Positions 12,338-51,310 of a stretch of DNA of 64,000 nucleotides are shown here, in pieces. The stretch covers positions 1,608,121 to 1,672,120 of the forward strand of contig CAWJYL010000002.1 of assembly GCA_963847075.1 (NCBI GenBank), read 5' to 3'. The translations under genes and the position numbers were made by a program. This DNA is from an uncultured Acidobacteriota bacterium. Lineage in GTDB: Bacteria; Acidobacteriota; Thermoanaerobaculia; UBA5066; Gp7-AA6. Under the pieces are notes generated by a model. It was not told the DNA's origin. It saw only the letters and a list, made by a program, of their open reading frames with translations, and did no database searches. Within the stretch, counting starts at the first letter, position 1; the number at the start of each line of letters is the position of its first letter.

Positions 12338-12698
12338 GGGGGCGAAACGGCTTCGACGGGGACGATTGCGCGAGAGGTTGCATGCCGAGGTCTCACCCCT
12401 CCTCGTTAAAGCAGGGTGAAAAATAGTAGCTGCGAACAACAGCAACTTCGCTCTGGCTGCTTAATTAAGTAGCCGCGTTTGCCGGATAGCGCACCCGCCG
12501 CGCTTCGGCCGACGTCGCGAAATGCGGGTGTAGCGGCTCCGGACCCCCGGACGGAGCAGCGAAATCCATTCGGGGTTGCCCTGACGCCGTTTTGCCTCTT
12601 CTCGAGGCGGCGGGGCGAGAACCAAGAAGAGGCTGAGCATGGAGTGGCCTCTCCCGCAGCGCTTCCGGACGCGGGTTCAACTCCCGCCGCCTCCACCA
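12338..12698 (+). ncRNA. ssrA: transfer-messenger RNA (tmRNA, SsrA)
   Basis: The 5' end is GGGGGCGAAACGGCTTCGACGGGG. The 3' end is GGACGCGGGTTCAACTCCCGCCGCCTCCACCA. The acceptor stem GGGGGCG/CGCCUCC contains the G3:U wobble. The internal tag reading frame 12429-12464 (GCT GCG AAC AAC AGC AAC TTC GCT CTG GCT GCT TAA) encodes AANNSNFALAA. Confidence 0.93.
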
Positions 12699-12719
12699 TT
12701 TCATGTTTCCCCAAGTTAA

Positions 12720-12743
12720 GGGCCGGATCGTCCGGCCCTTTTT
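12720..12743 (+). terminator. intrinsic terminator after ssrA
   Basis: GGGCCGGA-TCG-TCCGGCCC followed by T5. Confidence 0.7.
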
Positions 12744-13012
12744 CTCGTGCGGTCCGCTCAACGCCGTTTACCGCTTTGTTCCCGCCGTTCGACTCGGACA
12801 CAGGACGCGGGCACGTGGTTCCAACTCGTTGACCTGTTGTGAACTTCCTGGAGGTTAGAGTCCTACGCGGCTCACCACTCACTCCGGTTGTCGCTGGCAG
12901 CTGATCTCTGCAATTAGGAACATCGCGTCAGGCTGGAATCGGCCGCTTGCGCGCGCGTGACGGAGGCGCAAACTCGTTGACAGGGGGGGCTTCCCTGCGG
13001 AGAATTGCGATT

Positions 13013-13107
13013 GGCGATGGAGTTCGCCTAAACCGCCCGATCGCGCTACGCGAGAAGGCTGATAACTCCTGCACCGGAGGGCACCATGCACGGCGCAGGA
13101 GTTTTTC
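13013..13107 (+). promoter_or_regulatory. fluoride riboswitch (crcB motif) with terminator expression platform
   Basis: Reads GGCGAUGGAGUUCGCCUAAACCGCCCGAUCGCGCUACGCGAGAAGGCUGAUAACUCCUGC. P1 is GGCGA/UCGCC. The loop GGAGUU is complementary to AACUCC (pseudoknot), and the conserved UAAACCGCC...GGCUGAUAA core is present. The terminator ACUCCUGCACCG...CGGCGCAGGAGU plus U5 (13065-13107) shares the AACUCC strand. Confidence 0.8.
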
Positions 13108-13152
13108 TTATGCCCGGCGGTCGCGAAGGCCGGTCACAACCCGAGGTGGCCC

Positions 13153-14368
13153 GTGACTGAAACGTGGTTCCTCGCGGCGATCTGGGTTGGTCTCGCGCTG
13201 GTCGCTGTCCTGATCGCCATCAAGCTCCGAATCTCGACGGCGCTCTCGGAGATCGTCGTCGGAACAGTGGCCCAGCTCGTGATCGGGGCCACTATCGGGA
13301 CGGCCTTCCTCGGAGCAAAGCAGCCCTGGATCACGTTTCTCGCCGGCGCAGGGTCGATTGTCTTGACCTTCCTGGCGGGTGCCGAGCTCGATCCGTCGTT
13401 TTCCGGAAGCGCTGGAAGGAAGCGACCGGAATCGGGCTCATTGGGTTCGTTGCGCCGTTCCTCGGTTGTTCTGCCATCGCGCATTACATGCTCCACTGGC
13501 CAGCGCGGCCGTCCTGGCTCGCCGGTGTGGCGCTTTCGACGACGTCGGTCGCCGTGGTCTATGCCGTCATGCTCGAGCTGGGTCTCAACACGACACCTTT
13601 TGGGAAGGCGATCCTGGCTGCTTGCTTCGTCAACGACCTGGGAACGGTGATCGCGCTGGGTCTGATCTTTGCGCCGTTCACAGTCCGTACCGCAGTCTTC
13701 GTTGGGGTTTCGGTCATCGTTTTTGCCGTCTTGCCATGGTTGACTCCACGTTTCTTCAAGCGCTACGGCGGCCGGGTCTCGGAGCTCGAGGCGAAGTACC
13801 TGCTGCTGCTCTTATTTGGAATGGGAGGCCTTGCCACCTGGTCGGGCAGCGAGGCCGTCCTCCCGGCCTACGTGATCGGCGTGGTGCTGGCGGGTACGGT
13901 GGGAAAGGATCATGTATTGATCCGGCGGCTTCGCACCCTGACTTTCGGGCTCCTCACTCCTTTCTACTTCATCCGCGCCGAATCCTGCGTCTCGGTGCCG
14001 GCGCTGGTGGCGGCGCCGTTCGCCTTCCTCGTCCTTTTCGGAGCCAAATCCGTGAGCAAGTTTGTCGGGGTCTTCCCTGTGGCGAAGCTCTTCCGATATG
14101 GCAAGCAAGAGGCGATCTACACGACGCTTCTGATGTCGACGGGCCTGACGTTCGGCACGATCTCGGCGCTCTTCGGCCTCTCGCATGGCATCATCGATCA
14201 AGCGCAGTACTCTTATCTGGTGGCAGCCGTGATCGCGAGCGCGGTCATTCCGACCGTCATCGCGAATGCGTTTTTCCTTTCCGCGTCACCACCTCCCCAC
14301 GACGATTTCGGAGCCGGAAAGCGGAGGCCGTGGCGGTCGTTAGCCGGCTCGAAGGAGGCAAGGCATGA
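13153..14368 (+). pseudogene. cation:proton antiporter (CPA family), frameshifted
   Basis: Frame A (13153 to ~13398) reads MTETWFLAAIWVGLALVAVLIAIKL...LTFLAGAELDP. The protein continues only in another frame (VFRKRWKEATGIGLIGFVAPFLG... to ...VIPTVIANAFF). It probably shifts to a third frame near the T5 run, ending at TGA 14366-14368, which overlaps the next ATG as ATGA. Confidence 0.75.
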
Positions 14369-14781
14369 AGACGATTCTCGTCGCATTCGACGGGTCCGAG
14401 CAGTCCCGCAAGGCGTTCGAACTCGGGCGGGATATTGCGTCGAAGTTCCGAGCCAAGCTGGTCGTTGTCAGTGTGATTCAGCTTCCCGAACCGGCAATCT
14501 CCGTAGAGATCGACGCCTTGCTCGACGCCGGCAAGACGCAGTTCGCGGAGGAATTCGCGCACCTGGAGACGGCGGCTGCTGGAGCAGGGGCTCGCGTTCG
14601 AGTCGAAAGTGGTCGTCGGCCACCCCGCGGAGCCAACGTTCGTCACGCCGAGGATCTTCACGCGGATCTGATTGTCATGGGCCGTCGAGGTCAAAGACAC
14701 AGGTAACGCGCTGGATCCTGGGCTCGGTGTCTGAACGAGTGTTCGCGTTATGCGCACTGTCCCGTAACGGTCGTGAAGTAG
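14365..14781 (+). pseudogene. universal stress protein (UspA family), multiple frameshifts
   Basis: MKTILVAFDGSEQSRKAFELGRDIASKFRAKLVVVSVIQ is intact. The remaining conserved pieces QGLAFESKVVVGHPAE, RHAEDLHADLIVMGRRG, RWILGSVSERVF and YAHCPVTVVK-stop lie in three different frames. Confidence 0.7.
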
Positions 14782-15058
14782 CCGATGGTCCCGCGAATCT
14801 CTGTGCGCCGACAGAACCGGTTCGGGTTTGCCTGTTGCGATCGAACGCCTCCGCGGCCGCCAGTATCGGTGCCTGCGATGCAATACCGTCTTTTATGAGC
14901 TCGACGAGCTCGACCATGACCTCAGTCGCGAGGGGCCGGGCCCTGACGCCGAGGACGTCCCGCGCTTTGACGAGCCGATGCTCCTGCGATTCTTCTACTC
15001 CGAGGACGTCCGGGAAGGCTGGGGGGAGCGCAGAAGCGTAGTAGAGAGGCACGCCGCC

Positions 15059-17169
<2,111 letters not shown>

Positions 17170-17173
<4 letters not shown>

Positions 17174-18396
17174 GGGGTCGCTCTCCCCGGCCGCAGAGCG
17201 ACGGCACCGCTGAGCTGGAGCGCCGCCGCAACGACGAGGCCGATGGACGGGCTGGCGGGGAAGAGAGACCAAAGCGTGCCCACGAGCGCGCTCGAAACGA
17301 AGTCACCGATGCCGTTCGTGGCAGCGAGCAGCCCCATTCCCACTCCCCGCTGAGCCGGGGCCAGCAGGGACGCCGCGTAGGCCTTCTCGGCGACCTCCTC
17401 GCAGGCAATGTAGAGGCCGGAGCAGACGAACAGGGCGAGCAGTGTTCCCGGTGTCGCGGGCAGCAGCGCGAATCCGGCGGTGGTCGCCGCGGCGAATAGG
17501 TAGCCGACGATGACGACCCGTCGGACGCCCACCCGGTCCGCCAGGGCGCCAATCGGGAGCGCGGCAACCGAGCTGACGGCGTTGTGGAGGACGTAGAGCG
17601 CGATGGCCAGGCTCGCCGCGCTCCACGAGAAGAGAGTTCCTTCCACGTGCTGGGTCACATAGAGAATCAGCAGGGTTCTCGAGAAGTCCCCGCACCCGAA
17701 GATCAGGATCGCCACGAGATATCTGTGGAAGGGTCTTCCCGTCCCGGCGAGGTGCATTCGCAGCGTCTTACTTGCCGCGGGGTGCCGGTTGGGGCGTTCG
17801 GTGACGAGGACCGCGATGGACAGGAACGCGAGAAGTCCGGGCAGAAGCGAGACGAACATGACGTGCCGGCTGGAGACGCCCCGGGCCAGCAGGACCACGG
17901 CGAGAAGCGGCCCGATGACGGCCCCGAGAGCGTCGCCGGCGCGTTCCATGCCGAAGGCCTTGCCGACGGCTTCGGGCGGCGCCGCCTCCGAAACCAGAAC
18001 GTCCCGGGGTGCAGAACGGGTGCCGCGGCCGACCCAGGCCGCGACCCGACACAGCATCACTTGCCAGGCAGTCGCGCAGAGGCCGATCGCGGCTATTCCA
18101 ACTGCGGTCACGAGGTATCCGATGGAGGCGAGGGGCTTGCGCCGCTCGACGCGGTCCGTCATGACGCCGCCCCAGAGCTTGGCAATTGCAGAGAGCCCAT
18201 CCGCGCTGCCCTCGATCCAGCCGAGCGCTGCCGGTCCGGCCCCGAGGGTGAGAAGGAATGATGGAAGAACGGCCGTCGCCAGCTCGTGCGAGACGTCCGA
18301 GAAGAGGCTTGCGAGCGCCGCCCCGAGAGTGGAGCGGTTGAGCCATCCACTGGGTGCCGCTCCGGAGGGTAACCCGTGCAGGGCCCTGCGCCTCAC
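17170..18396 (-). CDS. MFS transporter
   Basis: Intact 408-aa ORF with about 12 predicted TM segments and MFS-like loops (GGVMTDRVERRKP, GALADRVGVRR). GTG 18396 overlaps the upstream stop as GTGA. Confidence 0.8.
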
Positions 18397-20433
18397 CGTT
18401 CGACTTCCACGGGTTCCCGAGATTCCTCGATCTGACTCAACTCGGCGATTATGGCTTCCTGGTCCGCTGCGCCGCCCGACTCAGTCAGCCTGCGAGCGCG
18501 CGCCCGTAGTGGTTCCGATTGGGTCGCGAACCGGGCGGCCAAAGCGCCGAGCGACCGGTGCAGCCATTCCCGAGATTGGTTGACGAACGAGCTGAACGAT
18601 AGATAGAGAGGGCCATTCACCACGGCGAAGAGCCGGGCTGCGATGCGCTTCTCGAGGAGCGAGGGGAAGGGCTTCAGCCATGCCGGTCGCCGGATCTCAA
18701 TCCGATCGAGCTCGGGGGGCAGGACCAGGACGGGTTGCGTGACGAGGTCGACGGTGAGGTCCTCCGGCTGGGTCGGCTGCCCGCCGAGGCCTTTTGCCAT
18801 CTCCGCCAGGATCGTTCGGAGCTGATCGCGGGTTTCCATCAGCTCGGTTCGTATGGCCGCCCTCGTCTCTTCTCCAGCGCCGAGGATCGTCTCGCGGACT
18901 CGTTGCCGGTCGGTGTCGCCCTGGTTTCCCGGTCCGGGCAAGCGCTCAACGACGTCGCGGGCAGCAGCGGCCAGTACGTCTGGCGTTTGACTCCTGGCGT
19001 GGTCGAAGAGTCGCTCGCAGGACCTTCCCGGCTTCCTGGAAACGCCCCTCGGCCTCGAGGGCGAGCTGTTCGACGGGCGCTCGGGGTCGGTCTCGGTCAT
19101 TCGACGCGGCTCCCGGCGTGCTCTTGAGCAGGGCGCGGAGTGACGCCCCCACGCCCTCGCGGAGGCCCGCGAGCTTGCGCCGCGCCGAGGCATCCGCGAG
19201 CTCCTTCGCCCGCGCGCAAAGCGGCGCGATCTCGCGGTCGAACCATTCATGCGCGAGCGCGGCACCTGCCCCCACGCTGCTGACGAGGTGCACGGGCAAA
19301 TCGAGGCCGAGCCCCTCGGCGATCTGTTTCCTCACGTACGCGCGCAAGGCGAGCCTGTCCGGCTCCGAAACTAGGTCCGCCTTGCTCAGCACGGCCATTC
19401 CGGGAATCCCCGAGTCGTAGAGGCGTCTCAGGATGTCGAGATCCTCCAGCCCCGGCGAGCTCGCCGCGTCGAGAAGCACAATGCCGAGGTCGCAGCGTGG
19501 AAGATAGGCATACGACTCTCTCGCGCCGGACGTCGCCAGAGAACCGACGCCCGGCGTGTCGACGAACACGACGCCGTTAGCAAGCTGCGGAGAGGGAAGG
19601 CGTACGAGCGCCCGCACGACATGCTTTGAGTTGCCAGGGTTCCCGGCTTCGGACACGTACTCCGTCAGCTGCTCCAAGGGGCCGCGTTCGTCGGGCGCGT
19701 CGGCGAAGCGAATCTCGATCTCTGGGGGTTCGCCCCAGGCGACGCGAGTCGGCACGGCCGTCACCGGCGTGACGCCAACGGGCAGCGCCGCGATTCCGAG
19801 GGCGGCGTTCAGGAGCGACGACTTGCCGGAGCTCACGCGTCCGAAGACGGCGATTTCGAACGTCTGAGACTCGAGGTGCTCCAGGAGGGACTCGAGTGTC
19901 CCCTGGAACTCCACGAGACCTCGGTTCCGAATGATGCGTTCGAGCACTCCGAGCAGACCGAAGTCGGGGCGTGCCTCTTCCAGCCTCTTGAGCCGCGCTC
20001 CGAGGTCCTTGCCGAGGCCCTGCGAGACGTAGGTTCGCAGCCGACGGAGGCTCCGCTCCAAGTCTGCTTCGAGCTGTTCGATCGTTCTGGCCGCATCCTC
20101 GTCGAGCGGCCCGTACCCGAGCAGCCGGTTGGGGGAAACGTCCTGGATCGCGATCTCCGCGAACGAAAGCGTCGTCATGATGGCCCACGAGGAGGCGTTG
20201 CGGGCCGGCTTTATCGGTATGCCAAGCGCCTCGAGGGCGCTGACCAGCCGCGCGCGAACAAGCGCAAGATGGTCGGCGATCACTTTCTGCTGTGCGAGGG
20301 ACAGGTCGGGCTGGAATCGCGCGAAAGGAGACTATCCGCGAGACGCGACGGTCTCTACGTCCACGAGCAGGCCGTCGATGTGCTTGAAGGCATTCGCCAG
20401 CACGCGACGATGGTTGTCGTTCAGGTCAGGCAT
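18393..20433 (-). pseudogene. bacterial dynamin-like GTPase (DLP-1), in-frame TAG plus one frameshift
   Basis: G1 FGRVSSGKSSLLNAALG, G3 VFVDTPGVGS, G4 VLSKADL. ATG 20433 overlaps the DLP-2 stop as ATGCCTGA. The frame contains TAG at 20334-20332, and the ORF track restarts at GTG 20283. The reading frame changes near 19018: EAGKV in one frame, then ERLFDHARSQTPDVLAAAARDVVERL... in another, running to 18393. Confidence 0.7.
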
Positions 20434-22188
20434 CGTCTTCTGTCGGGTCCGGGAGGAGGGCCTCGACCTTTCGACGCAGATCATCGAGACGCGCGCGCTC
20501 CGCACTCACGGCTTCGGCGCCTGCCGACCGCCGGGCCCGAGCTCGTTCGAGCGCTCTAGCGGCAGAGTCGCAGACCTCGTGCAAACGCTCGCGGATTTCC
20601 GACTCCAGGCGCCGCCGGCTTTCGAGCACGCGCTCGTCGAGATCGTTCAGGACTCGTGTGCTGTTGTGCTCGAGGATCTTGCTCAGGTATTCACCAGCGT
20701 CGTGCTGTGCGGCTGTAATGGCGTGCTCCTTGTCGCGGGCAAGGTCGGAGATCCATGCCAGCGCCTCGCCGGGTGCAAGCTCGAAAAGCTCGCTGAAGAA
20801 AAAACGCCGAGGAACCCGAAAGCCCATCTCGGATTCGAGCGGGCGAGGAGGGTTGAGCGCATAGGCGTCGTCGGACCCCGTGAGGCGGCCGAAGAACTCG
20901 TTGCTGAGCTCCACGAATCGGTCGGTCGCTCGGCTATACATCGTCTCGGCCGCAGGTTCGACCTCCGGAAGCCACGCTTCGAGCGTCCGTCGAGCAATCT
21001 CGCGCGCTATCGCCGGGGCTTCCTTCCGGAGCGACTTCGTGCCTTCGCGGGCAAGACGGGAGATCGCCTTGTCGAGCTGGTATCTGGCTTCGGGCATCAC
21101 CCTGGCGAGAAACGCCTTGCGTCGCTGCTCGAACGCTGCCGAGAGCTTGTCCTGCTCGGCTAAAAAGAGGTATCCGAGATCCTGCGCTGCCTGCTCGGCC
21201 GCGGCTACGGACCGGCGGAGCGCCGCGATCCGGCGCTCGGACTCTTCGACGGGGCGAAGCAGAGCGGTTCGTTGCTCGTCGAGCTCGTTCAGCACCCATG
21301 CCGAGAGGCGACGCAACCCTCGAACCTGAGCATCGAAGACGAGGGCAGCGCCGGACCCCGCTGGCCAGCTTCGAGAGGCTGTCGAGGAGTTCGGGAAGGT
21401 CGCGGGTCCCAGTTCCGGACTGCAGGCACTCGGCGGCACTGATTTGCAGCATCGGCCCGACCGGTTGCCCGAGCCGACTCGCAAGGACGCGCTCGGCGAA
21501 TCGCAAAGCTTCTTCTCGGTCCTTCTCCCCGAGGCGGTCCGCTTTGTTGAGGACGAAGATGAAGTGCTTGACGCTCTTCGAGACCTCATCGACCAGATTG
21601 AGTTCATCGCCCGAAATCGGCGGATCGGCGCCCACGACGACGAGTGCCGCGTCGATGTGCGGGATGAACTGACGGGTTGCTGCCGAGTTGGCTTCGAAGA
21701 CCGAGCCGAGCCCTGGCGTATCGACAAGGCAAAGACCGGATTCGAGAAGAGGGTGGGGCAGGAACGCCTCCGCGCCGAGAACGCCTTTGATGTTCTCGGG
21801 ATTCTCTCCCTCAGAGACGAAGGAGACGAGATCGCCCAGCGCGATGTCCTCCCATCGACCCGAACTGAGCCGAACCCGAGCGCCCCGTCTCGTCCCGTGG
21901 CGGACTACCGTGACTACGGACGTAACCGGGACGACCCCAGCTGGCAGGACGGGCTCTCCGAGTATCGCGTTCAGGAGAGTCGACTTCCCGCGCTTGAACT
22001 GGCCGATGCAGGCGACATAGAAGAGACCTTGCTCCGTACGCGCGGCTAGCAAGCTGGCATCCGCGGCCGCCCTCAAGGCTCCAGCTCTCGGTTGCGAGAT
22101 ATGACAGGGCTTGCAGATGCGAGAGAAGATCGGGGCGCAAGGCGGCCTCGGCGGCAGCCGCGCTTCCGGATCTCACCTCGTGTGACAC
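20426..22188 (-). pseudogene. bacterial dynamin-like GTPase (DLP-2), frameshifted
   Basis: G1 IGQFKRGKSTLLNAILG, G3 LVDTPGLGS, G4 VLNKADRL. Frame change near 21355 in a GGGG run: ...LLDSLSKLASG, then GAALVFDAQVRGLRRLSAWVLNELDEQ.... The best start is GTG 22188, after GGGAGGAA plus a 6-nt spacer. It is in a third frame (MSHEVRSGSAAAAEAALRPDLL...), which implies a second shift near 22080. Confidence 0.7.
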
Positions 22189-22218
22189 CGATGATTCCTC
22201 CCGCGCCAGGCCTACGGA

Positions 22219-22583
22219 CTAGCCCGCGGTGCTCGAGGCAGACTTGCGTTTCGTCGGCCCGTATTTCAGGACGCGAGCCTTCTCGATCGTGACCAGCCCC
22301 TCCGAGACCATTTCGTCGAGGATTTTGAGAAGCCGTTCAACATGCTCCTCAGTGTCGACAACCTCGATGAGCGTTGGTAGTCCTCGGAGAAGCGCAAGAG
22401 GTGCGCCGAATGAAGGATGCTTCGGGCCCCGAAGCCTGCGATCCCATGAAAAACTGTGGCCCCCGCGAAGCCCTCCTTCCGGAGCTTCTCGAGCAGCGCC
22501 ATATGAAGCGGCTGATGATGCCACTGGTCGGACTCTCCCATGAAGATTCGAACCAGGACCTGGTCCCCGTCGAGGACGCGCAT
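22219..22583 (-). pseudogene. DUF190 family protein (CrcB-associated), frameshifted
   Basis: MRVLDGDQVLVRIFMGESDQWHHQPLHMALLEKLRKEGFAGATVFHGIAGFGARS...LLRFSED is in one frame. LPTLIEVVDTEEHVERLLKILDEMVSEGLVTIEKARVLKY is in another. The junction is near 22380. Confidence 0.7.
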
Positions 22584-22593
22584 GGTTCCTCCC

Positions 22594-22977: not shown

Positions 22978-23010
22978 TCCGACCCCCCCTGCGTTCTGGC
23001 TATTTGGGCC

Positions 23011-39073: not shown

Positions 39074-40867
<1,794 letters not shown>

Positions 40868-42018: not shown

Positions 42019-44705
42019 AGTATCGCCGCGTCCTCCTCGTCACGGAGCTCGGAGCCGACGCCCGCGGGGAAGTCGCGACGATCCGGCGGGTAGCGCCCGA
42101 GGCTGCTCTGCTGGTCGTCATCGCTCGTCTTCCCGCGCGCAAGTTCGCGTGGTTTACCGGCGAGGCCCCCTCCGATCTGAATGAAGCGGCGACCGCGTCG
42201 CTCGCTGAGCTGCGTAACGCGACCGCGGGCGCCGCGAAAACGGTGGAAGTGAAGCTCGCGCCCGAGCTGACGACCGGCGATCTGGTCGAGGTCGCGACCG
42301 CATCGGAGATCGACCTTCTCGCGACCGGGCGACTGCCGCCGACGAGCGTTGCGGTCGCCGCCGAGTTGCGCAAGAGGCGATCCCTGCCCGTGCTGTGGAT
42401 CGCGGGAGCGCCTGCAAGCGATCGCCCGATCACCAACCTTCTCTGCGTCGCGCTGGGGGGGCGCGCTCGCACCGCGGTTACCGAATTCCTACGCGACCAT
42501 GGCACACCCGACCTTCACGCCAGCGTCCTCCTGACCGAGGCCCGGTTTCCCGGCGATCTCGCCGCCACGTTGAATGTGGCAGGCATCGAGGCGGTAGTGG
42601 ATCTCATCACGCCGCCGGAAGCGGCACGGCGCCGGTGGAGAGGTGAGGGGGCGCCGGATGGCGCTCTCGACCTGCTAGTGCTCGCACGATTTCCCCGTGC
42701 CTCGCTGCCGTGGGCGTCATGGCCGGCGCCAATTCTCATTCTGCCTCCGCCGCACGCGGCCGGGCCGGCGCTCCGGCGCGCGATCGACTTGTCGGACCTC
42801 GTGGATGAAGGCGGCGTGATTCGCGCGCGCTTCGACTACGCTCTGGGCGTGGGACGGCGCGAACCGATCCCCAATCAGCAGATCGCATTCGTCTCCGGCG
42901 GCCGGATCATCGCCGAGGTCGCGACGAGCGACGGCGACGCCGAGCTGTCTCCGAGCCCCGGGGTGGACTCACTCGGCGTGTTTCGTGTGGAAGGGAGTGC
43001 GGCGCCCGATCCACTCACCACCATCGAGGAGCAGGTCGAGGTGATTCGGCCCGGCTCGCGCCCTCTTCTTCTCTTCGACGCCGACCTCGCGGCCAACGGG
43101 CTGTCCGCCATTGCGGGCCTTGGCGGCCCGGAGGCGCCCGACGCGCTTGCGGTGCGGCTGCGGCCGATGCAAAGTTGTAAAGCGATCCGCGCGCGGTTGC
43201 ACCTGGCCGGTCTCGCCGCACGCGTCGTCGACGCCAGTGCCGTGCTGGATGAGGGCCAGGCGCTCGACGTACCGGTGGCCGTGGACCCAGTGCGGCTCGC
43301 GCGCGTGGGCGCAAGACTGCGGGCAGCGGGATTTCCGGTCGCGGCGATCGTTCACAAAGGCGAGCACACGCCGTCCACCATCGGCTTCGCGGCCTTGAGA
43401 GCGGAGCATCTTGCGTCGACGCCATTGCGATTTCAGCGGCCCGCTCCCGGGCCGCCCTCCCTCGCCAGCCGCCTCGAGGCGACGACGGGCGCTTCCCTGC
43501 TGGCCGGCAACCGCATCGAGGTCGAGATGGACAACCGGAAGGCGCGCCGGTGGCTGCTCGAAGCGATCGGAGAGAGCAAGCAGCGCGTCCATCTGCAGGC
43601 TTACATGGCGTTGGACGACGACGTGGGCGGGCAGGTGGAGTCGGCTCTGGCCGCGGCGGGCGCGCGCGGTGTCGCTGTGCGCGTCGTCGTCGACTCGCTG
43701 CACGGTCTTCACGGCTCCCTCGGCATGCGGAACCCGCTCCTCGAACGCCTCGGAAACCGCCCGGGCGTCGAGCTTCGAGTCGTGCGGCCGGTCACGGGAG
43801 CCCCCTCGCTGGAGGACCTGAAACAGCGAGACCATCGCAAGGTCGCAATCGTCGACGGCGCGCTGGCTCTGCTGGGCGGGCGCAATCTTTCTCACGAGTA
43901 TTACACCGGCTTCGAGGAAGTGAACCTCACCCCTCGGTCATTGTGGCGCGAAGTGCCCTGGCTGGATGCCGGTGCGCGAGTGGAAGGTCCGGCCGTCGCG
44001 GCGTTGGAGCGTTCGTTCCTCCAGGCCTGGACCGGGGCGGGAGGTTTCGCCTTCGACATGGCCGAGATTCCGGAGTGCGGCCCCTCGCCAGCGCGCGTGG
44101 TCGTCCATCTCGGGCTCCGCGACGCCTCCACCCTCGAGACCTACCTCGCGCTCATCGAGACCGCGAAGTCGCACGTTTACGCCGTGAACGGCTTTCCCCT
44201 GATCCTGGAGATCCAGCATGCCTTGCTGCGCGCGCTCCGCCGCGGCGTCCGCGTGCGCGCGCTCTTCGGCAACCTCACGCCCACGCACGACGGCAAGCGC
44301 TTCGAGGGGCCCTGGGGCACCGCGCGGGTCGCCGCGACGGAGCTGGTCGCCTCCCGCATCGACACGGTCGTCGCGGCCGGCGGCGAGTGCTATCAGCTCG
44401 CGATGCCCGAGCGGCCTGGCTGGACGGGTCTCGGCGTCCTGAGGCCTCATGTCCACGCGAAGGTGATGAGCGTGGACGGCCGCGTCTGCTCCGTCGGCAG
44501 CGCGAATCTGGACATCACGGCCGGCTACTGGGAGAACGAGCTGCTGCTCCTGGTGGAGGACCCGACGATCGCGAGCGCGCTCGAGGCCCGCATCGATCAA
44601 CTCATCGCGGGCTCGGCGCGCGTCGATCGCGACGAGCCGGCCTGGCGGCAGACCGCGCGGCGCCGCGACTGGATGCGGCACTGGCCGGGCGTGCTGTCCG
44701 TCTGA
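42015..44705 (+). CDS. large phospholipase D-family protein (two HKD motifs) with USP-like N-terminal region
   Basis: Intact 896 aa. HKD-1 is HRKVAIVDGALALLGGRNL and HKD-2 is HAKVMSVDGRVCSVGSANLD. The N-terminal ~300 aa has USP/adenine-nucleotide-alpha-hydrolase-like repeats (RRVLLVTELG...). Confidence 0.8.
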   Translation: MKYRRVLLVTELGADARGEVATIRRVAPEAALLVVIARLPARKFAWFTGEAPSDLNEAATASLAELRNATAGAAKTVEVKLAPELTTGDLVEVATASEIDLLATGRLPPTSVAVAAELRKRRSLPVLWIAGAPASDRPITNLLCVALGGRARTAVTEFLRDHGTPDLHASVLLTEARFPGDLAATLNVAGIEAVVDLITPPEAARRRWRGEGAPDGALDLLVLARFPRASLPWASWPAPILILPPPHAAGPALRRAIDLSDLVDEGGVIRARFDYALGVGRREPIPNQQIAFVSGGRIIAEVATSDGDAELSPSPGVDSLGVFRVEGSAAPDPLTTIEEQVEVIRPGSRPLLLFDADLAANGLSAIAGLGGPEAPDALAVRLRPMQSCKAIRARLHLAGLAARVVDASAVLDEGQALDVPVAVDPVRLARVGARLRAAGFPVAAIVHKGEHTPSTIGFAALRAEHLASTPLRFQRPAPGPPSLASRLEATTGASLLAGNRIEVEMDNRKARRWLLEAIGESKQRVHLQAYMALDDDVGGQVESALAAAGARGVAVRVVVDSLHGLHGSLGMRNPLLERLGNRPGVELRVVRPVTGAPSLEDLKQRDHRKVAIVDGALALLGGRNLSHEYYTGFEEVNLTPRSLWREVPWLDAGARVEGPAVAALERSFLQAWTGAGGFAFDMAEIPECGPSPARVVVHLGLRDASTLETYLALIETAKSHVYAVNGFPLILEIQHALLRALRRGVRVRALFGNLTPTHDGKRFEGPWGTARVAATELVASRIDTVVAAGGECYQLAMPERPGWTGLGVLRPHVHAKVMSVDGRVCSVGSANLDITAGYWENELLLLVEDPTIASALEARIDQLIAGSARVDRDEPAWRQTARRRDWMRHWPGVLSV

Positions 44706-44725
44706 GCACCGGCCGGGAGAGCCGA

Positions 44726-45724
44726 TCAGCCCGGATCGCCAAACTCGTCGACGCGGCCCTTCGGCCGAAGCGCCGCGATGTAGTGATGCGGGCCGTGCTC
44801 ATCCATCGTGTAGCGGGAAGAGTCCCGGCGCTTCGCGGTGCCGAGGAAGGCCAGGAGCGCGCGTGGAACCTCTCGGAGATTCACGAGTTGGGTGACGGGA
44901 GTCTCCGACTGCTGCCACTCGCCTTCCGCGTAGCGGTATTCCCGTCCGAAATGCGCCAGGCGTCCCCACGCCGCAGGGGGCAGACTCGGAATGAGATCGC
45001 GGGCGTTGACATGACGGTACAGCTTCCGTCCCATTTCGCGCGCTGCTTCGGGCACGGGCTCGCCGGTGACCAGCGGCTGGCCGAACGTATAGATCGCTCG
45101 CAGCTTGCCGGCGATCTCGCGGTGCTCCGCCGTCCTGGCGAGGGATAGCGCGAACAGCACGGCCATAGCGCCGCCGAGGCTGTGGCCCGTCACGTACAGC
45201 GCTTCCATCGGATGGTCGAGGCTCTTCCGCGGATCCAACAGCGACCTGCCTTGCAGGGCGAGGTTCAACTCGTCGAGGACGCCCCGGAGCGTGGACCGGA
45301 CGTTTCGAAGCATCCCGGCATGGACGACCAGTTCATGGCCGCCGAGCGTGATCGAGTCTGATCCGACGTCCGCGTCCGTGAGCCAGTTGCCGAGATTCGC
45401 CGGCTCGGTGCCCCGATAGCAGAGGATCGCCGCCCGGCCGCAGCGGCTTTGCACGAGATATGCCGTTGAGAAAATGTGCATCGCATCCACGACTTGCGCG
45501 ACACGCACACAGGCGCTGCCCACGAGCCCGATTCTGGCCATAGTCATGGCCACGGTTTCAGTGTCCGCATAGGCGTAGCCGGAACACGTCCCGAGGACAT
45601 GCGCGACAACGGCGTCGCGCCCGGCATCTGGCGACCCGTGCGCCGCAAGGAGGTTCCCGACGAGATCCTCGTAAACAGGGAACGGGCGACCGCACGCTCC
45701 ACTCGACAGCCGCTCGACGTTCAT
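44726..45724 (-). CDS. class 3 lipase family protein
   Basis: 332 aa with nucleophile elbow YVTGHSLGGAMAVL, then YTFGQPLV and the RDLIPSLP pattern. Confidence 0.8.
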   Translation of the reverse strand: MNVERLSSGACGRPFPVYEDLVGNLLAAHGSPDAGRDAVVAHVLGTCSGYAYADTETVAMTMARIGLVGSACVRVAQVVDAMHIFSTAYLVQSRCGRAAILCYRGTEPANLGNWLTDADVGSDSITLGGHELVVHAGMLRNVRSTLRGVLDELNLALQGRSLLDPRKSLDHPMEALYVTGHSLGGAMAVLFALSLARTAEHREIAGKLRAIYTFGQPLVTGEPVPEAAREMGRKLYRHVNARDLIPSLPPAAWGRLAHFGREYRYAEGEWQQSETPVTQLVNLREVPRALLAFLGTAKRRDSSRYTMDEHGPHHYIAALRPKGRVDEFGDPG

Positions 45725-46291
45725 CGCTTCAAGAGCCTGTCTTTCATGCCGTCGACGAACCCTTCCATCGGGCCGTCCCGAGGGAGCAGGCGTGCAACGC
45801 TATCACTTTTGGCTCGTCTCTCCTGTCCGAATGCGAATCACGATGGAGCGGGGCGCTCTCTTGCACTGGTCCGAGGAGGGGCACCGGACACGCGAGGTTC
45901 AGAACCCGGCGTGCCGATGAACCTGTCGCACGAGGGATTGGGATGACGATGAGCCGTGCGAGCCGTTCCTGAGTTCCGTCGCACGCTCCACCACGTCGCT
46001 TGAGAAATATCGCGCTCGCGTTCAGTCTGGTGTTCTCGGACGGGCAAACCGAGCAGAAATCGGCGCGTTCGCCTCGGTGCGACTCGGAGAGATTCGAAGC
46101 TAGAATCGCCGACACGGTCTTCCGATGACACTCCCAGCCGGTACTTGCCACGGGCCCTGTGAGGTCCTGTCGTTTCTCGGCGCGGGCGAGGTACGGGAGG
46201 CGTACCGGGTACGAGATGGCCGCCCAACGCCCGACGTGGCCATCGGCGTGGTGCCCACCGTCATCGTGTTGCACCGGGGGCAGTCGTCAGC

Positions 46292-47755
46292 ATGAGCTCG
46301 CATTTTCTGCCGCCTGCCGTCATCGTTGTCGCACACGTCCTCGTCGTCCTCGTCGTGGGTGGGCGTGTCATCATGCGACGACCGGTGCGCGGGGTCGCCC
46401 TTGCGTGGCTGTTCCTCGCAGCCATGCTGCCCTTCGCCGGCGGGCTGGCTTACTTGCTCATCGGGGAGCGCCGGATTGGCCGCCGGCGAAGACGAGACCT
46501 CGACACCCTGCACACCGACTTTCGGAAGATTGCCGCGGCGGCGATCCCGGCCGGCCTTACCGAGGTTGCCTGGCCGCGCCACGCGCCTGCCGCCCGCAGC
46601 CTCGATCGCCTGGGTCGGACCCTGGTGGGCAGCCCGACGGTGAAAGGCAGCAGCTTCGAGCTGTTCGCCGATACGCAGGCTGCACTGAAAGCGATCGCCC
46701 ACGACGTGGACAGCGCGAAGACCAGCGTCCTGATGGAGTTCTACATCTGGAATGAGGGGGGCACGGCGGAGATCGTGCTCGATGCTCTGATCCGGGCGGC
46801 CGAACGGGGCGTCCGGTGCCGCGTGCTGATCGACGCGCTCGGAGCCCGGCCGTGGTGGCAGGGTCGGCAGCCCCGGCGGCTGAGGGAGGCGGGCGTCGAA
46901 GTGCGGGAGGCTCTCCCCGTGGGGCTGCTGCGCAGCCTGGTGGGCCGCACCGACCTTCGGTTGCATCGCAAGATCGTCGTCGTGGACGGCGAGGTGGCGT
47001 GGACCGGCAGCATGAATCTGGTGGACCCGGTCTACTTCAAGGCGGATGCCGGCGTCGGAGAATGGGTGGATGCGATGGTCCGCCTCGAGGGCGCTATCGT
47101 GGTCCCGCTCGGCGCGATCTTGATTGGAGACTGGCTGCTCGAGACCGGCGAGCCCATCGAGGATCTCATCCGCAGCGCCGGGCTCCATCTGGTTCGGCCA
47201 CAGGGGCCTTCCGACATCCAGGCCATTCCATCGGGACCTGGAGAAGGCGGCGATGGCCTGTTGCAAATGCTGCTGGCGCTGATTAGCGCCGCGCAGAATG
47301 AACTGGTGCTCACCACCCCTTATCTGGTCCCGGACGACGCCCTGATCCTGGCGCTGCGCGGGGCCGCAGGCCGCGGGGTCAAGGTCACGGTGATCGTCCC
47401 GGAAAAGGTGGACTCCCTACTGACCCGGTACGCGAGCCGGTCGTATTACGACGACCTGCTGGACGTCGGCGTGGAACTCCAGCTCTATCGCGGCGGCCTT
47501 CTGCACACGAAGTCCATTTTGGTGGACGACGCGATGTCGATGTTCGGGACGGTCAACTTCGACATGCGCAGCCTGTGGCTAAACTACGAGGTGGCATTGT
47601 TCGTCTACGGACCCGAATTCGCGCAGGCCCTCCGCGCGCTGCAGCAGGCCTACCTCGCGCAGTCCGTACCGCTCGACCGCGCGGCCTGGAGTCGCCGGCC
47701 CTTGAAGGAGCGATTTCTCGAGAACGTGCTTCGCCTCTTTAGCCCGCTGCTATGA
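46292..47755 (+). CDS. cls: cardiolipin synthase
   Basis: 487 aa. Two N-terminal TM segments ending LAYLLIGERR. HKD motifs LHRKIVVVDGEVAWTGSMN and LHTKSILVDDAMSMFGTVNFD. Confidence 0.9.
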   Translation: MSSHFLPPAVIVVAHVLVVLVVGGRVIMRRPVRGVALAWLFLAAMLPFAGGLAYLLIGERRIGRRRRRDLDTLHTDFRKIAAAAIPAGLTEVAWPRHAPAARSLDRLGRTLVGSPTVKGSSFELFADTQAALKAIAHDVDSAKTSVLMEFYIWNEGGTAEIVLDALIRAAERGVRCRVLIDALGARPWWQGRQPRRLREAGVEVREALPVGLLRSLVGRTDLRLHRKIVVVDGEVAWTGSMNLVDPVYFKADAGVGEWVDAMVRLEGAIVVPLGAILIGDWLLETGEPIEDLIRSAGLHLVRPQGPSDIQAIPSGPGEGGDGLLQMLLALISAAQNELVLTTPYLVPDDALILALRGAAGRGVKVTVIVPEKVDSLLTRYASRSYYDDLLDVGVELQLYRGGLLHTKSILVDDAMSMFGTVNFDMRSLWLNYEVALFVYGPEFAQALRALQQAYLAQSVPLDRAAWSRRPLKERFLENVLRLFSPLL

Positions 47756-47814
47756 GGTCGGGTTCATCGACTTGAGCGCCGGGCTCTCGGCCCGGTTTTG
47801 CTAAGGTCGTCGTC

Positions 47815-49080
47815 ATGTCCGAGCCTTCCACGGAGCAGATACGCGAATTGCTCGACTCCCTTTATCGCGTGGAGTCCGGACGAATCCTGGCAACGCTGAT
47901 CCGCTTGCTCGGGGATTTCGATCTTGCCGAGGAGGCAATGCACGAGGCCTTTGCGGCCGCGCTGAGTCTGTGGCCGAGGAGTGGAGTACCCGGCAACCCG
48001 CGACCATGGTTGATTTCGACGGCCCGATTCAAAGCCATGGATACTCTGCGTCGACGGGCACGCTCGGATGCGTCCCAAGACGAGCTCGTGCGCCATCTCG
48101 AAGCGCAGTGGAGTTCGGCGGAAGAGTCCAATGAAGAGGGCAACCTCGAGGATGATCGGCTGCGCCTGATTTTTGCGTGCTGTCATCCATCTCTTGCGCC
48201 GGAAGCGCGCATCGCGCTCACCTTGCGGGAGGTGTGCGGGCTGACAACCGAGGAGATCGCAAAGGCCTTCCTCATTACTCCGCGTACGCTGGCGCAGCGC
48301 ATTGTGCGCGCCAAGTCAAAGATTCGAGACACGCCGATTCGGTACGAAGTGCCGACGCCTCAGGAATTGCCGGAGCGACTGGGCGCGGTGCTTCAGGTCG
48401 TCTATCTCATCTTCAATGAGGGCTACTCCGCTGCGGCGGGAGCGGAAGTCACGCGGGCCGAGCTGACCGGCGAGGCGATTCGACTGGGCCGGTTGCTGAC
48501 CGAACTCCGGTCAGAACCGGAAGTTGAACCGGAAGTCATTGGCCTGCTATCCCTGATGTTGCTGCAGGAATCCCGCCGCGCCGCGAGAACATCGCCGACC
48601 GGAGAGCTGATTTTGCTGGAGAACCAGGATCGCTCGCTCTGGAACCGAGAGCAGATCGCGGAGGGAGTGGCATTGCTGGAAAAAGCCCTGAAGTCCCGCC
48701 GCTTCGGCTCTTACACACTGCAGGCTGCGATTGCGGCCGTTCATGCAAAGGCGGAATCGGTCGCCGTGACCGACTGGCGACAGATCGTTGCGCTTTACGA
48801 CCGATTGCTGCGGATTCAGCCTTCGCCGGTCGTACAGCTCAATCGTGCCGTGGCAATTGCGATGCGCGATGGTCCAGAGGTCGGCCTGACGCATATCGAC
48901 GCGGTGTTGGAGCATGGCGAACTGGCAAATTATTACCTGGCGCATTCAGCCCGTGCAGACATGTGCCGCAGGCTCGGCAGGACAGCGGAGGCTCGGTCCT
49001 CTTATGAAAAAGCTCTGGCGCTGACCCAACAGGAACCTGAGCGGCAATTCCTGCAACGGCGGATTCGGCAGTTGAAATAA
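47815..49080 (+). CDS. ECF-type sigma-70 family sigma factor with long C-terminal extension (ECF42-like)
   Basis: 421 aa. The sigma-2/sigma-4 regions (WLISTARFKAMDTLRR..., LTLREVCGLTTEEIAKAFLITPRTLAQRIVRAK) are followed by a ~230-aa helical/TPR-like extension. YCII/DGPF genes lie downstream. Confidence 0.85.
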   Translation: MSEPSTEQIRELLDSLYRVESGRILATLIRLLGDFDLAEEAMHEAFAAALSLWPRSGVPGNPRPWLISTARFKAMDTLRRRARSDASQDELVRHLEAQWSSAEESNEEGNLEDDRLRLIFACCHPSLAPEARIALTLREVCGLTTEEIAKAFLITPRTLAQRIVRAKSKIRDTPIRYEVPTPQELPERLGAVLQVVYLIFNEGYSAAAGAEVTRAELTGEAIRLGRLLTELRSEPEVEPEVIGLLSLMLLQESRRAARTSPTGELILLENQDRSLWNREQIAEGVALLEKALKSRRFGSYTLQAAIAAVHAKAESVAVTDWRQIVALYDRLLRIQPSPVVQLNRAVAIAMRDGPEVGLTHIDAVLEHGELANYYLAHSARADMCRRLGRTAEARSSYEKALALTQQEPERQFLQRRIRQLK

Positions 49081-49262
49081 GACACGACTCGTCAGAAGCC
49101 GATGCGGACATTGAGATGACCAGGCGCAAAGCACGGTTCTCAGCCGCGGAAGAAGCAGAATTTCTTGGCCGAGCTGTCGAATTCCGGTCCGGCCGGACGA
49201 CTATATGGTGAGGGCAGGGCAAGCGGCCCGCCCGAAGACCGTCACAGGAGAATGGAGAAGTC

Positions 49263-49637
49263 ATGACGCAGTATTTGGTCGCGATTCACCTTCCCGACGA
49301 CTTCGACCCGTCCGCAGCGGACGAAGCGATGTCCCGCGACATCGACGTGCTCAACGACGAGATGGTGGCTGCCGGTGTCAGGGTTTTCGTGGGCGGGCTC
49401 TCCCCCGCCAGGAACGCGAGGTCGCTGCGGGCGCAGCCCGATGGGAAGGTTCTCATCACCGACGGGCCGTACCTGGAGACCAAGGAGCACATGGGCGGTT
49501 TTTGGGTGCTGGACGCCGCTGACCTGGACGAGGCGCTGGCGTGGGGTCGTAAGGCTGCCGTCGCCTGTCGGGCGCCGGTCGAGGTACGCGCAGTTTGGAG
49601 ACCTGGAGACCCAACGGAAGCAACTGAGCGGCGGTGA
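49263..49637 (+). CDS. YCII/DGPF-domain protein
   Basis: Reads MTQYLVAIHLP...ITDGPYLETKEHMGGFWVLDAADLDEALAWGRK. Confidence 0.8.
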   Translation: MTQYLVAIHLPDDFDPSAADEAMSRDIDVLNDEMVAAGVRVFVGGLSPARNARSLRAQPDGKVLITDGPYLETKEHMGGFWVLDAADLDEALAWGRKAAVACRAPVEVRAVWRPGDPTEATERR

Positions 49638-49758
49638 CAACACTGCCGGCGTTTCCGGCCTGACGGCCCGCTGTCGGGGTGCCGCGAGCCAGGTCGGCAT
49701 CCGTGCTTACAGAACCGCTGAGTCACGGCCCCGAGTCACAGGAAACAGGGAGGAATTG

Positions 49759-50175
49759 ATGAAATACATCTGTCTGGGATACATCGAGCCAGGACGGTTC
49801 GAAGGGATGACCGAGGACGAGCGCCACGCAACGTTCGACGAATGCTTCGAGTACAACGACCATCTGCGCGCCAACGGACATCTTGTCGCCGAGGTGCCTC
49901 TTCAGCCTCCGGAGACCGCGTTGACCCTGTACTGGAAAGACGGCAACGTCGCGACGACGGACGGCCCCTATGCGGAAACCAAGGAACAGCTCGGCGGCAT
50001 TCAAATCCTCGAGGCGCGAGACCTCAATCACGCCGTTCAGCTCATCTCACAGCAACCAGGCTTCAAATATGGACTTGGACCGATCGAGATACGGCCGGTC
50101 ATGGATTTGAGCGACATCATGAAGGAGAGTGAACAGCGGCGACGGCGAAACGCTGATCCTCGGCAGGGAGACTGA
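49759..50175 (+). CDS. YCII/DGPF-domain protein
   Basis: In-frame ATG 49759 follows GGAGG. Reads MKYICLGYIEP...TTDGPYAETKEQLGGIQILEARDLNHAVQL. Confidence 0.8.
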   Translation: MKYICLGYIEPGRFEGMTEDERHATFDECFEYNDHLRANGHLVAEVPLQPPETALTLYWKDGNVATTDGPYAETKEQLGGIQILEARDLNHAVQLISQQPGFKYGLGPIEIRPVMDLSDIMKESEQRRRRNADPRQGD

Positions 50176-50242
50176 GAACATGTCATTCGTTCGCGATCTG
50201 AGAGTTGCAGCTCACTCGTTGATTCGGACCCCAGGGCTGGCG

Positions 50243-50323
50243 ACGGACAGATCGGGGGAGTAACTCGAACACAATCGGGAATTCGTTAGAACTCCGTGGA
50301 TTCAACTCCGGCCGCCTCCACCA
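50243..50323 (+). repeat. ssrA-associated att-like element, copy E (diverged)
   Basis: GACGGACAGATCGGGGGAGTAACTCGAACACAATCGGGAATTCGTTAGAACTCC is followed by GTGGATTCAACTCCGGCCGCCTCCACCA. That is 24 of 26 nt identical to the ssrA 3' end. Confidence 0.75.
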
Positions 50324-50445
50324 AGTTAGGTTCATCACAATCGTGTCGAGTCGCGCCCCCGTCGTTCGTCGTAACTCTGTAAAGAGACCACATTGGTGCA
50401 GGGCATCCTGCTTCTACGAACCATCGCAAGACTTAAGGAGGAATC

Positions 50446-51111
50446 ATGGCTACCGCAACGGCAACACGAAGAAAGCTCGTGTTGAAGATGTCCGTCTCCC
50501 TGGACGGCTTTGTTGCCGGACCGAACGGCGAGGTCGACTGGATATTTCGGACATCGGGGGGCAACGAATCCACGGAGTGGGTTCTCAATACGCTTCGCGG
50601 AGCCGGCGTGCACATAATGGGGAGCCGTAGCTATTACGACATGGCGGCGTTTTGGCCCTTTTCGGACATGCCGATCGCACCGCCGATGAACGACATTCCC
50701 AAGATCATTTTCTCGAGGAAAGGGATCAAGGACGGCACACAGGTGGATCGGACGACGCGGGCGCTCGCCGAAGCAAAAGCGCGCAATGCGGAGCGGCATG
50801 GCGTCGCGCCGACAGCGGCGGTCCTGCAGTCCTGGGCTGAACCCACGGTGGCACGCGGCGATCTCGCGGAGGAAGTTCTCCGACTGAAGGAACAGCCGGG
50901 CAATTTCATCCTTGCGCATGGAGGCGCTCGGTTCGCCCAAAGCCTCGTTGCCTCCGGCCTCATTGACGAATATCGACTGGGCATTCATCCGGTTGTATTG
51001 GGCCAAGGCCAACCGCTTTTCTCCGGACTGCGCAGCCCGGTTGATCTGCGACTCATCAGCACGACCCCCTTCCGCTCTGGCGCCGTCGCAGCCGTCTACC
51101 AACCGGCATGA
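50446..51111 (+). CDS. dihydrofolate reductase-like protein (RibD C-terminal domain family)
   Basis: 221 aa reading KLVLKMSVSLDGFVAGPNGEVDW...HIMGSRSY...LIDEYRLGIHPVVLGQGQPLF. Confidence 0.8.
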   Translation: MATATATRRKLVLKMSVSLDGFVAGPNGEVDWIFRTSGGNESTEWVLNTLRGAGVHIMGSRSYYDMAAFWPFSDMPIAPPMNDIPKIIFSRKGIKDGTQVDRTTRALAEAKARNAERHGVAPTAAVLQSWAEPTVARGDLAEEVLRLKEQPGNFILAHGGARFAQSLVASGLIDEYRLGIHPVVLGQGQPLFSGLRSPVDLRLISTTPFRSGAVAAVYQPA

Positions 51112-51228
51112 ACCGTCGCGCGCATCGACGCCATGAAGGCTCTTCGCGCCGAGTGAAATGCACAGGGCAATCCGCCCGGCACTGACAAATCGGTGGCCAT
51201 GCGCGCCGACCCCTTAGCGGCTGGGAAG

Positions 51229-51310
51229 GGCGAACAAAAACACGGACACACGGGAGGAGTATTTCGGCACCATTCAGGAATTCGCAAGAATTCCGCGCCT
51301 TCAACTCCCT
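51229..51310 (+). repeat. ssrA-associated att-like element, copy F (3' truncated)
   Basis: GGCGAACAAAAACACGGACACACGGGAGGAGTATTTCGGCACCATTCAGGAATTCGCAAGAATTCC is followed by GCGCCTTCAACTCCC. The element ends inside the T-loop equivalent. Confidence 0.75.

Follow-up and report, generated by a model that had tools for sequence, protein, structure and literature searches.

Tandem modules without recombinase genes behind the tmRNA gene ssrA of an uncultured Acidobacteriota bacterium

Genes for transfer RNA (tRNA) and transfer-messenger RNA (tmRNA) are classic docking sites for genomic islands, and the usual island brings its own integrase. Here we analyze the locus of the tmRNA gene ssrA in a 64,000-nucleotide (nt) stretch of an uncultured Acidobacteriota bacterium from the class Thermoanaerobaculia (contig CAWJYL010000002.1 of GenBank assembly GCA_963847075.1), referred to below as the window. 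Six modules stand in tandem behind this gene, and no recombinase gene was found in any of them. We interpret the locus, at a rough probability of 60%, as a tandem array of six site-specific integrative modules that accreted at the ssrA 3' end and were moved by a recombinase encoded elsewhere. The piling up of mobile islands at tmRNA genes is already known, and the unusual features of this locus are the complete lack of integrases and the cassette-like sizes of the modules.

The closest described case is that of the ssrA genomic islands of Dehalococcoides, 16 of which carry a six-gene integration module beside the left attachment site (attL) with the CcrB-like serine recombinase DsiB (McMurdie et al., 2011; PMC3146451). 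These islands have a 20-bp repeat, insert at the T-loop of ssrA, and show a conserved 15-bp motif upstream of the repeats, and some of them were suggested as possible cis-mobilizable elements (PMC3146451). The locus studied here resembles them in the tandem islands downstream of a single-copy ssrA, the direct repeats of the ssrA 3' end, the apparent insertion at the T-loop, a conserved motif just upstream of each repeat, and the strain-specific cargo. In contrast to Dehalococcoides, where the DsiB/DsiA module lies beside attL, neither the modules of the window nor the gene tables of related loci contain a recombinase or resolvase. In addition, the upstream element is 15 bp long there and ~75 nt long here, where it includes direct repeats and a palindrome, and the present host belongs to the Acidobacteriota.

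Cis-mobilizable elements (CIMEs) of the Streptococcus ICESt type are likewise flanked by attachment (att) sites, accrete in tandem, and lack genes for integration or transfer; their movement is attributed to an integrase provided by a related element (ICEberg 2.0; PMC6323972). Their cognate integrative and conjugative or integrative and mobilizable elements are known and often adjacent, whereas no such partner was seen in any of the genomes sampled here, and the array is made up of integrase-less units alone. The tycheposon-built islands of Prochlorococcus (10.1101/2020.12.28.424599) are similar in being additive islands at tRNA and tmRNA genes, in which newcomers push older elements outward, and in their partial tRNA copies, scattered degenerate remnants, and niche-adaptive cargo. 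However, tycheposons themselves encode a tyrosine recombinase and replication functions and leave remnants with fragmented integrases (10.1101/2020.12.28.424599), neither of which was seen in our case. As in Islander-type tDNA islands, an intact target gene stands at one end and displaced 3' fragments form direct repeats at the island ends, but an integrase lies inside such islands by definition, mostly beside the regenerated target gene, and none was detected here by either Pfam or a six-frame search with an integrase hidden Markov model (HMM).

The tmRNA of the window is of the standard one-piece type with the tag peptide AANNSNFALAA, as identified by ARAGORN and Rfam. The core shared by the displaced copies corresponds to the last 23-28 nt of ssrA (TTCAACTCCCGCCGCCTCCACCA), which span the T-loop through the terminal CCA. 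The 26-mer at the 3' end of the gene, GGGTTCAACTCCCGCCGCCTCCACCA, which starts at 12673 within ssrA, has perfect matches at 28978, 32126, and 36304 and a match with 2 mismatches at 50298. Every copy lies on the plus strand; the chance expectation is 0, and shuffled sequence yielded none. At the three exact copies the match to the ssrA flank extends over 28, 31, and 33 nt, respectively. At 51299 stands a truncated copy (CTTCAACTCCC, followed by unrelated sequence), with a core that ends after TTCAACTCCC. The original prediction, made from the window sequence alone, had listed the three exact copies with the same match lengths as well as the truncated one, and all of these were reproduced; the two-mismatch copy that it placed at 50296 also exists but starts at 50298.

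The copies are identical from TTCAACT in the tmRNA T-loop to the CCA, over 23 nt in all of them and 26-33 nt in the window, and the 5 bases preceding TTCAACT differ among them (CTGGG, ATGGG, GTGGA, GCGCC, and ACGGC). Several cores are also followed by a copy of the terminator region of ssrA: homologues of this flank were found behind the unit at 36304, partly behind that at 32126, and behind units in three related loci (L024, L029, and L034; loci from other genomes and contigs are cited by such numbers). The unit at 50229-50326 is followed instead by AGTTAGGTTCATC, the type of flank that follows ssrA in L027 and L035, two relatives with an empty site. The 26-mer core alone was rejected as a marker of such elements, as it is common to the tmRNAs of several phyla and to 21 IMG/VR contigs.

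A conserved arm of ~75 nt precedes each displaced copy of the core, with only a partial arm at 36304, and is absent from ssrA itself. The arm consists of two or three CGGACAA direct repeats phased at 12 nt, a GGRGGMG motif, and a GGAATTC-N4-GAATTCC (7-4-7) palindrome, with the consensus caacgCGGACAAcgaCACGGACAAAyCGGRGGAGyAgsTCGAAATCATTCAGGAATTCGCAAGAATTCC-(5 nt)-TTCAACTCC... One compensatory change in the palindrome occurs in L034 (GGGATTC...GAATCCC). The mean column identity in an alignment of 12 arm-plus-core copies from five genomes was 82%, and an nhmmer profile of the unit recovered exactly six sites plus ssrA in the 64-kb window and nothing else (Table 1). One of these sites is the arm-only relic that had been noticed in the original prediction and is now placed at 23176-23236; it equals a junction of L029 minus ~51 nt, a deletion that took the core as well as the palindrome's 3' half. 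At the unit at 36277-36336, ~48 nt including the palindrome were lost.

Since each displaced copy has a conserved arm that ssrA lacks, all modules carry a single predicted type of att site. Each junction can be read as P arm, core, and P', as expected for tandem elements with one attP type, and the repeats and the palindrome of the arm have the appearance of sites to which an accessory factor and an arm-binding integrase would bind. The arm at 28978 and arm b of L029, each of which closes an arsenic (ars) module, are best matches of one another, and the CTGACAA arm variant is common to the arms closing modules with a toxin-antitoxin (TA) pair in the window (32126) and in L034. Arms thus travel with the cargo on their left, as expected for a P-O-P' arrangement. 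The regenerated target, the displaced 3' ends, and the island-side arms suggest the anatomy of site-specific integration at the T-loop and 3' end of the tmRNA gene, which is also consistent with the position of the presumably oldest, most decayed copies farthest from ssrA.

The recombinase that such an anatomy calls for was sought by several approaches. Pfam analysis of ~70 gene-like open reading frames (ORFs) between 7 and 64 kb of the window identified no integrase, resolvase, or transposase family, NCBIfam analysis of the ORFs without a Pfam match added nothing, and the gaps between annotated ORFs are all shorter than 0.8 kb. An integrase HMM built from five tyrosine integrases that adjoin the same tmRNA core in IMG/VR contigs had no match in six-frame translations of the window and all related loci. 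As a positive control, this HMM recovered ten integrases in IMG/VR contigs with the same core, including four ORFs without a Pfam family (E ≤ 0.001-0.01). In these comparison contigs the tyrosine integrase lies right beside the core. No tyrosine, serine, or DDE recombinase was found in the 64 kb of the window or in ~150 kb of related loci, whose gene tables list no integrase family, and an inspection of ten ssrA loci or arrays of relatives, among them the 22 kb that follow ssrA in L029/L042, revealed no integrase. In total, none of the ~18 modules with this one att-site type in six Thermoanaerobaculia genomes encodes a recombinase or an integrase fragment. The earlier claim that the 39 kb lack a recombinase was thus borne out, whereas a 74-amino-acid (aa) ORF at 29619-29843, which had been considered a possible helix-turn-helix (HTH) relic, produced only sub-threshold generic HTH matches in Pfam and offers no evidence for a relic recombinase.

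The four control ORFs without a Pfam family (E ≤ 0.001; E ≤ 0.01 for L008 and L014) are 400-445 aa long and adjoin the tmRNA 3' core in L008 (46-1326), L011 (4636-5925), L014 (8851-10062), and L017 (11160-12497). Their HMM E-values range from 1e-56 to 1e-112, and they look like an integrase lineage that is poorly recognized by Pfam models.

The ssrA loci of relatives were recovered via homologues of a 412-aa gene upstream of ssrA, and the public homologues of this gene are named Thermoanaerobaculia (Acidobacteriota). The closest relative, L027, has 86% nucleotide identity to the window over 3569-9569 and 10537-12745; its synteny ends 47 nt past ssrA and is followed by unrelated genes with no further core and no arm, and L027 is read as an empty ssrA site. 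L032, L035, L040, and L041 possess a single core and no arms. L029, as extended by L042, contains three arm-plus-core units, with an ars module behind the first one and then a module with Rieske and SpoIIAA genes. The left flank of its ars module equals the DNA to the right of the window relic at 23176, and the right end of the ars module together with the arm and core (window 25684-29003) is 92-94% identical between the two loci. They split immediately after CCACCA, the window continuing with a ribbon-helix-helix (RHH) antitoxin and ParE toxin module and L029 with the Rieske/SpoIIAA module. The same RHH-ParE pair is found directly behind the core in L025, L028, and L034, the core being that of ssrA itself in L028 and L034. 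In L025, a metagenome contig found by the arm-plus-core pattern, the order is YCII genes, sulfatase, HAD hydrolase, arm and core, and RHH-ParE, and in L034 a 0.95-kb module, bounded by a full unit, consists of nothing but the TA pair.

Presence or absence of modules with precise ends is thus polymorphic among relatives, as seen in the empty site of L027, the split at CCACCA in L029, and the TA-only module of L034. The 39 kb are not a conserved core of this lineage, since L027 is empty and other relatives have modules in other orders and combinations. The alternatives raised in the original prediction, integrase-less remnants accreted in tandem or cassettes served in trans, are together supported by this outcome and by the recombinase search. 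Breakpoints at the repeats, which it had proposed to look for, are seen in the split between the window and L029, and several other breakpoints lie off the units. Five JGI contigs end at ssrA, and four independent short-read ones with a homologue of the 412-aa gene (L036-L039) end within the region of CutA1 and ssrA, an effect expected from repeats or strain variation just downstream of ssrA. A contig of the Logan run ERR11523651 is identical to part of the window, and the related ENA assemblies are ERZ25039463, ERZ25039467, ERZ25039488, and ERZ25039502.

Two blocks are more similar between hosts than the DNA around them. Approximately 2.1 kb of the ars module (window 25684-27753) has 94% nucleotide identity to L029 in blastn, while the flanking core DNA is 74-84% identical; the window segment 36355-40998 is 93-97% identical to L040 3465-8928, directly behind the L040 ssrA, with flanking core DNA at 67-81%. 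Because these blocks are 93-97% identical while the flanking core DNA is only 67-84% identical, they point to recent transfer between diverged hosts. This bears on the first alternative, that the modules are fixed remnants of once-autonomous islands that have since lost all their integrase genes, leaving an array that is now immobile chromosome. Such decay would fit the truncated core at 51299, the deleted core at 23176-23236, the short arm at 36277, and the two-mismatch core at 50298, as well as the frameshifted cargo genes and a decayed ssrA fragment in L028, and integrase-less degenerate islands have been described in Prochlorococcus (10.1101/2020.12.28.424599) and Dehalococcoides (PMC3146451). 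However, no integrase fragment was left in any of the ~18 modules, modules of a single gene or a single TA pair still keep full units, and the three window units with perfect cores have arms that are 85-90% identical to those of other genomes. With modules at 94-97% identity also indicating recent movement, we regard this explanation as unlikely.

In a second alternative, no dedicated recombinase exists, and the units and ssrA act as portable homology for RecA-dependent double crossovers after DNA uptake. The identity of units (82-92%) and ssrA (~90%) across genomes, the breakpoints outside units, and the fruitless recombinase search are all compatible with it. Left unexplained, however, are the origin of the arm-core junctions, the divergence exactly after CCACCA, and the attL/attR structure with displaced 3' ends; moreover, imperfect homology of 23-100 nt is a poor RecA substrate, and the phased repeats and the palindrome with its compensatory change resemble protein-binding sites. 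We consider RecA-dependent exchange a distinctly improbable source of the array.

A third alternative is that arm and core are primarily an expressed tRNA-like RNA (a miniature of the tRNA-like domain of tmRNA) or a transcript-punctuation element rather than a recombination site. The segment from GGRGGMG to CCA is ~70 nt long, GGRGGMG can pair with the acceptor strand CGCCTCC (including G/A:U at position 3), a hairpin and T-arm follow, and there are weak partial matches to the Rfam tmRNA and tRNA-like models. In the predicted fold 76.8% of the cells are paired, which is no better than in shuffles, although the invariant core gives this test little power. The covariation likewise did not exceed that of shuffles, the folding z-score is near 0, acceptor position 6 is mismatched in 9 of the 12 copies, the T-stem is broken in GCGCC-type copies, and ARAGORN calls nothing, all of which makes a primary role as RNA very improbable.

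Several observations weigh against a module array moved in trans. No recombinase was identified in any of the sampled genomes, and action in trans is deduced from this absence. Searches for a helper element were equally unrewarding: the arm pattern had one match in 185,579 GTDB species representatives, a chance match without a core; hairpin-containing arm patterns found nothing in two IMG/VR scans; and blastn of the arm against plasmid and phage collections gave no match. The block shared with L040 ends at 40998, where no unit stands, and the ACR3 and ArsC regions compared with L029 and the sulfatase/HAD segment of L025 also have breakpoints off the units; therefore, other recombination processes also shape the region. 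Three units (window 51299 and units a and c of L029) have GCGCC in place of the xTGGG that mirrors the T-stem, which abolishes a symmetry of the T-stem on which a tyrosine recombinase might rely. At 9020-9445 of L029 on the minus strand (L042 17888-18313), an arm directly adjoins the body of ssrA in a fusion (…GGCCTCTCCCG|TCGTGCGCAGGCGGACAAAAACACGG…GAATTCCGCGCC|TTCAACTCC…), so that helix 2a lacks its 3' strand and the T-stem its 5' half; ARAGORN makes no tmRNA call there, the Rfam score is 131 bits, and either this ssrA is inactivated or a second copy is present. Simple core-to-core exchange yields neither the GCGCC units nor this fusion. Finally, the window DNA at 51.3-64 kb adjoins ssrA in none of the relatives examined, leaving the right chromosomal boundary of the array unsupported.

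In L028, RHH-ParE is followed by a copy of the 3' region of ssrA that is ~58 nt long and decayed (~8430-8490, minus strand); this copy starts further upstream within ssrA (GGCCTCTC…) and has no CGGACAA arm, which suggests a second kind of ssrA-targeting event at the same locus. A scan of IMG/VR for the CGGACAA repeat produced 14 matches, against ~10 expected by chance according to our own estimate from the collection size. Two of the 14 adjoin integrases, one of them P4-like: in L045, CGGACAATATCACGGACAAA direct repeats at 170-189 lie 14 nt upstream of an integrase at 203-1411 with the domains Arm-DNA-bind_3, Phage_int_M, and Phage_integrase. Their pattern, CGGACAA-N3-CACGGACAAA, is the same repeat as in the window arms and, as a weak lead, may represent the arm-type site of a P4-like integrase class.

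Under the preferred reading of site-specific modules moved in trans, a module in circular form would carry one attP-like site of ~100-150 bp, composed of the arm, the core from the ssrA T-loop to CCA, and, as a rule, a duplicate of the ssrA terminator. If the core of the circle recombined with that of ssrA, with strand exchange presumably inside the core, the module would be placed immediately after an intact ssrA and older modules would be shifted outward, so that each module would be bounded by arm and core on its right. The enzyme would be supplied from elsewhere, because no module encodes a recombinase; it could come from another locus of this genome, beyond the window, or from a helper element that shares the att site and is present only transiently. 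It is probably an arm-binding, P4-like tyrosine integrase with its crossover at the T-loop, as suggested by an arm of direct repeats that flanks the core on one side and by the position of the crossover region. Any DNA between two cores would be excisable and movable, as in cis-mobilizable elements and their accretion, which would explain how chromosomal-looking blocks, such as 36.3-41 kb and the segment with extracytoplasmic function (ECF) sigma factor and YCII genes, came to be modules.

A bolder version of this mechanism is an integron-like cassette platform at ssrA, in which the ~100-nt arm and core would be the sole requirement in cis and one unlinked or transient recombinase would serve cassettes of 1-14 kb, including captured chromosomal segments; we hold this version to be doubtful. 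Chromosomal integrons are similar in their small modules that include TA pairs, each ending in a conserved site of ~100 nt, in the single anchor, and in the recombinase-free cassettes. They differ in the presence of intI beside the anchor, where the window has CutA1 and a protein with immunoglobulin (Ig)/FN3 and vWA folds, and in their attC hairpins, which the units do not resemble: attC-like single-strand folding of the units was not supported (single-stranded DNA z-scores of -1.3 to +0.9). Moreover, integron cassettes are mostly promoterless and co-oriented, whereas the modules described here reach 14 kb, have genes on both strands, and contain their own regulators and riboswitches.

The coordinates of the modules and units are given in Table 1. 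The module sizes and gene themes of the original prediction were reproduced by Pfam. Module 1 carries a Na/H-exchanger-like gene, an enolase (frameshifted), a PP2C phosphatase, an MFS transporter, a dynamin-like GTPase surrounded by unannotated ORFs, a DUF190 gene, and CrcB, and is a self-contained fluoride-response unit. It is bracketed by two inward-pointing fluoride riboswitches, the first of which precedes the Na/H-exchanger-family gene, behind which the enolase lies on the other strand, and the second of which precedes crcB and the DUF190 gene. Module 2 contains an ArsC of the LMWP type, a glyoxalase-fold protein, thioredoxin_3, ArsP (split), ArsR, and ACR3 (split). In Module 3, the RHH antitoxin and ParE toxin genes right behind the core are followed by the 74-aa HTH ORF and genes for AhpC/redoxin, rhodanese, and ArsR-rhodanese proteins. 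A TA pair of the BrnT/BrnA type and a TAT-exported PhoD phosphatase constitute the cargo of Module 4.

Module 5 is probably composite. Its first part, at 36355-40998, encodes an NAD-binding protein, DUF308, DUF1269, and STAS proteins, and a sigma-54/PAS activator, and the rest encodes a metallophosphoesterase, two PLD-domain proteins, a lipase, an ECF sigma factor (DUF6596), and two YCII proteins. Three genes on the minus strand are split by frameshifts over two to three frames, namely the enolase (14925-16342), ArsP (~25950-27105), and ACR3 (27645-28852); they represent pseudogenes of a decaying array or else homopolymer indel errors of a long-read assembly. ArsP is intact in the relatives L028 and L029, and ACR3 is intact in L028.

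Table 1. Modules, arm-plus-core units, and associated elements at the ssrA locus of the window
Feature	Coordinates	Strand	Basis or remark
ssrA (tmRNA gene), attL-type anchor	12338..12698	+	ARAGORN; Rfam 179.6 bits
P' / terminator-like flank after ssrA (TTTCATGTTTCCCCAAGTTAAGGGCCGGATCGTCCGGCCCTTTTT)	12699..12745	+	
Module 1, 10.5 kb	12699..23175		Rfam, Pfam
Fluoride riboswitch	13004-13078	+	Rfam
Fluoride riboswitch	23033-23102	-	Rfam
Arm-only relic of unit	23176..23236	+	nhmmer E 8e-14
Module 2, 5.7 kb, arsenic	23237..28905		Pfam, NCBIfam, blastn
Full arm+core unit	28906..29005	+	E 2e-30
Module 3, 3.1 kb	29006..32053		Pfam
Full arm+core unit	32054..32154	+	CTGACAA arm variant
Module 4, 4.1 kb	32155..36276		Pfam
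Short-arm unit: CGGACAA repeats only, perfect core, terminator-like P'	36277..36336	+	
Module 5, 13.9 kb	36337..50228		Pfam
Full arm+core unit, most diverged, 2 core mismatches	50229..50326	+	
Module 6, 0.9 kb, single RibD_C (DHFR-like reductase) gene	50327..51226		Pfam
Terminal unit: complete arm, GCGCC-type junction, cut core	51227..51310	+	E 6e-17

The G+C content of the array is somewhat below that of its left flank. Upstream of ssrA, the window contains CutA1 and the 412-aa gene, whose product has a predicted Ig/FN3 plus vWA fold (AlphaFold pLDDT 86; Foldseek matches to FN3/Ig and vWA/integrin I); this protein was considered as a hidden recombinase beside ssrA and rejected on account of that predicted fold. 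Between a Cys/Met-PLP enzyme gene and this vWA-like gene, a 114-bp unit is repeated in tandem 7.8 times at 95% identity (9606-10487). The unit holds an inverted repeat (CTCAGGATGAC / GTCATCCTGAG), and L027 has other genes at this place.

If the modules are dead remnants, the locus is an ordinary decayed island array. If one enzyme serves them in trans, they would form a cassette economy analogous to that of integrons and built on the tmRNA gene, and an integron-like platform, if real, would let lineages share a pool of stress, metal, and toxin-antitoxin cassettes that have no mobility genes of their own. The defined site of ~100 bp and the defined attB at the ssrA 3' end provide handles for finding the missing integrase. 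An array served in this manner would act as a vehicle by which fluoride, arsenic, redox, and phosphate-scavenging functions spread within a poorly studied and largely uncultured class of Acidobacteriota.

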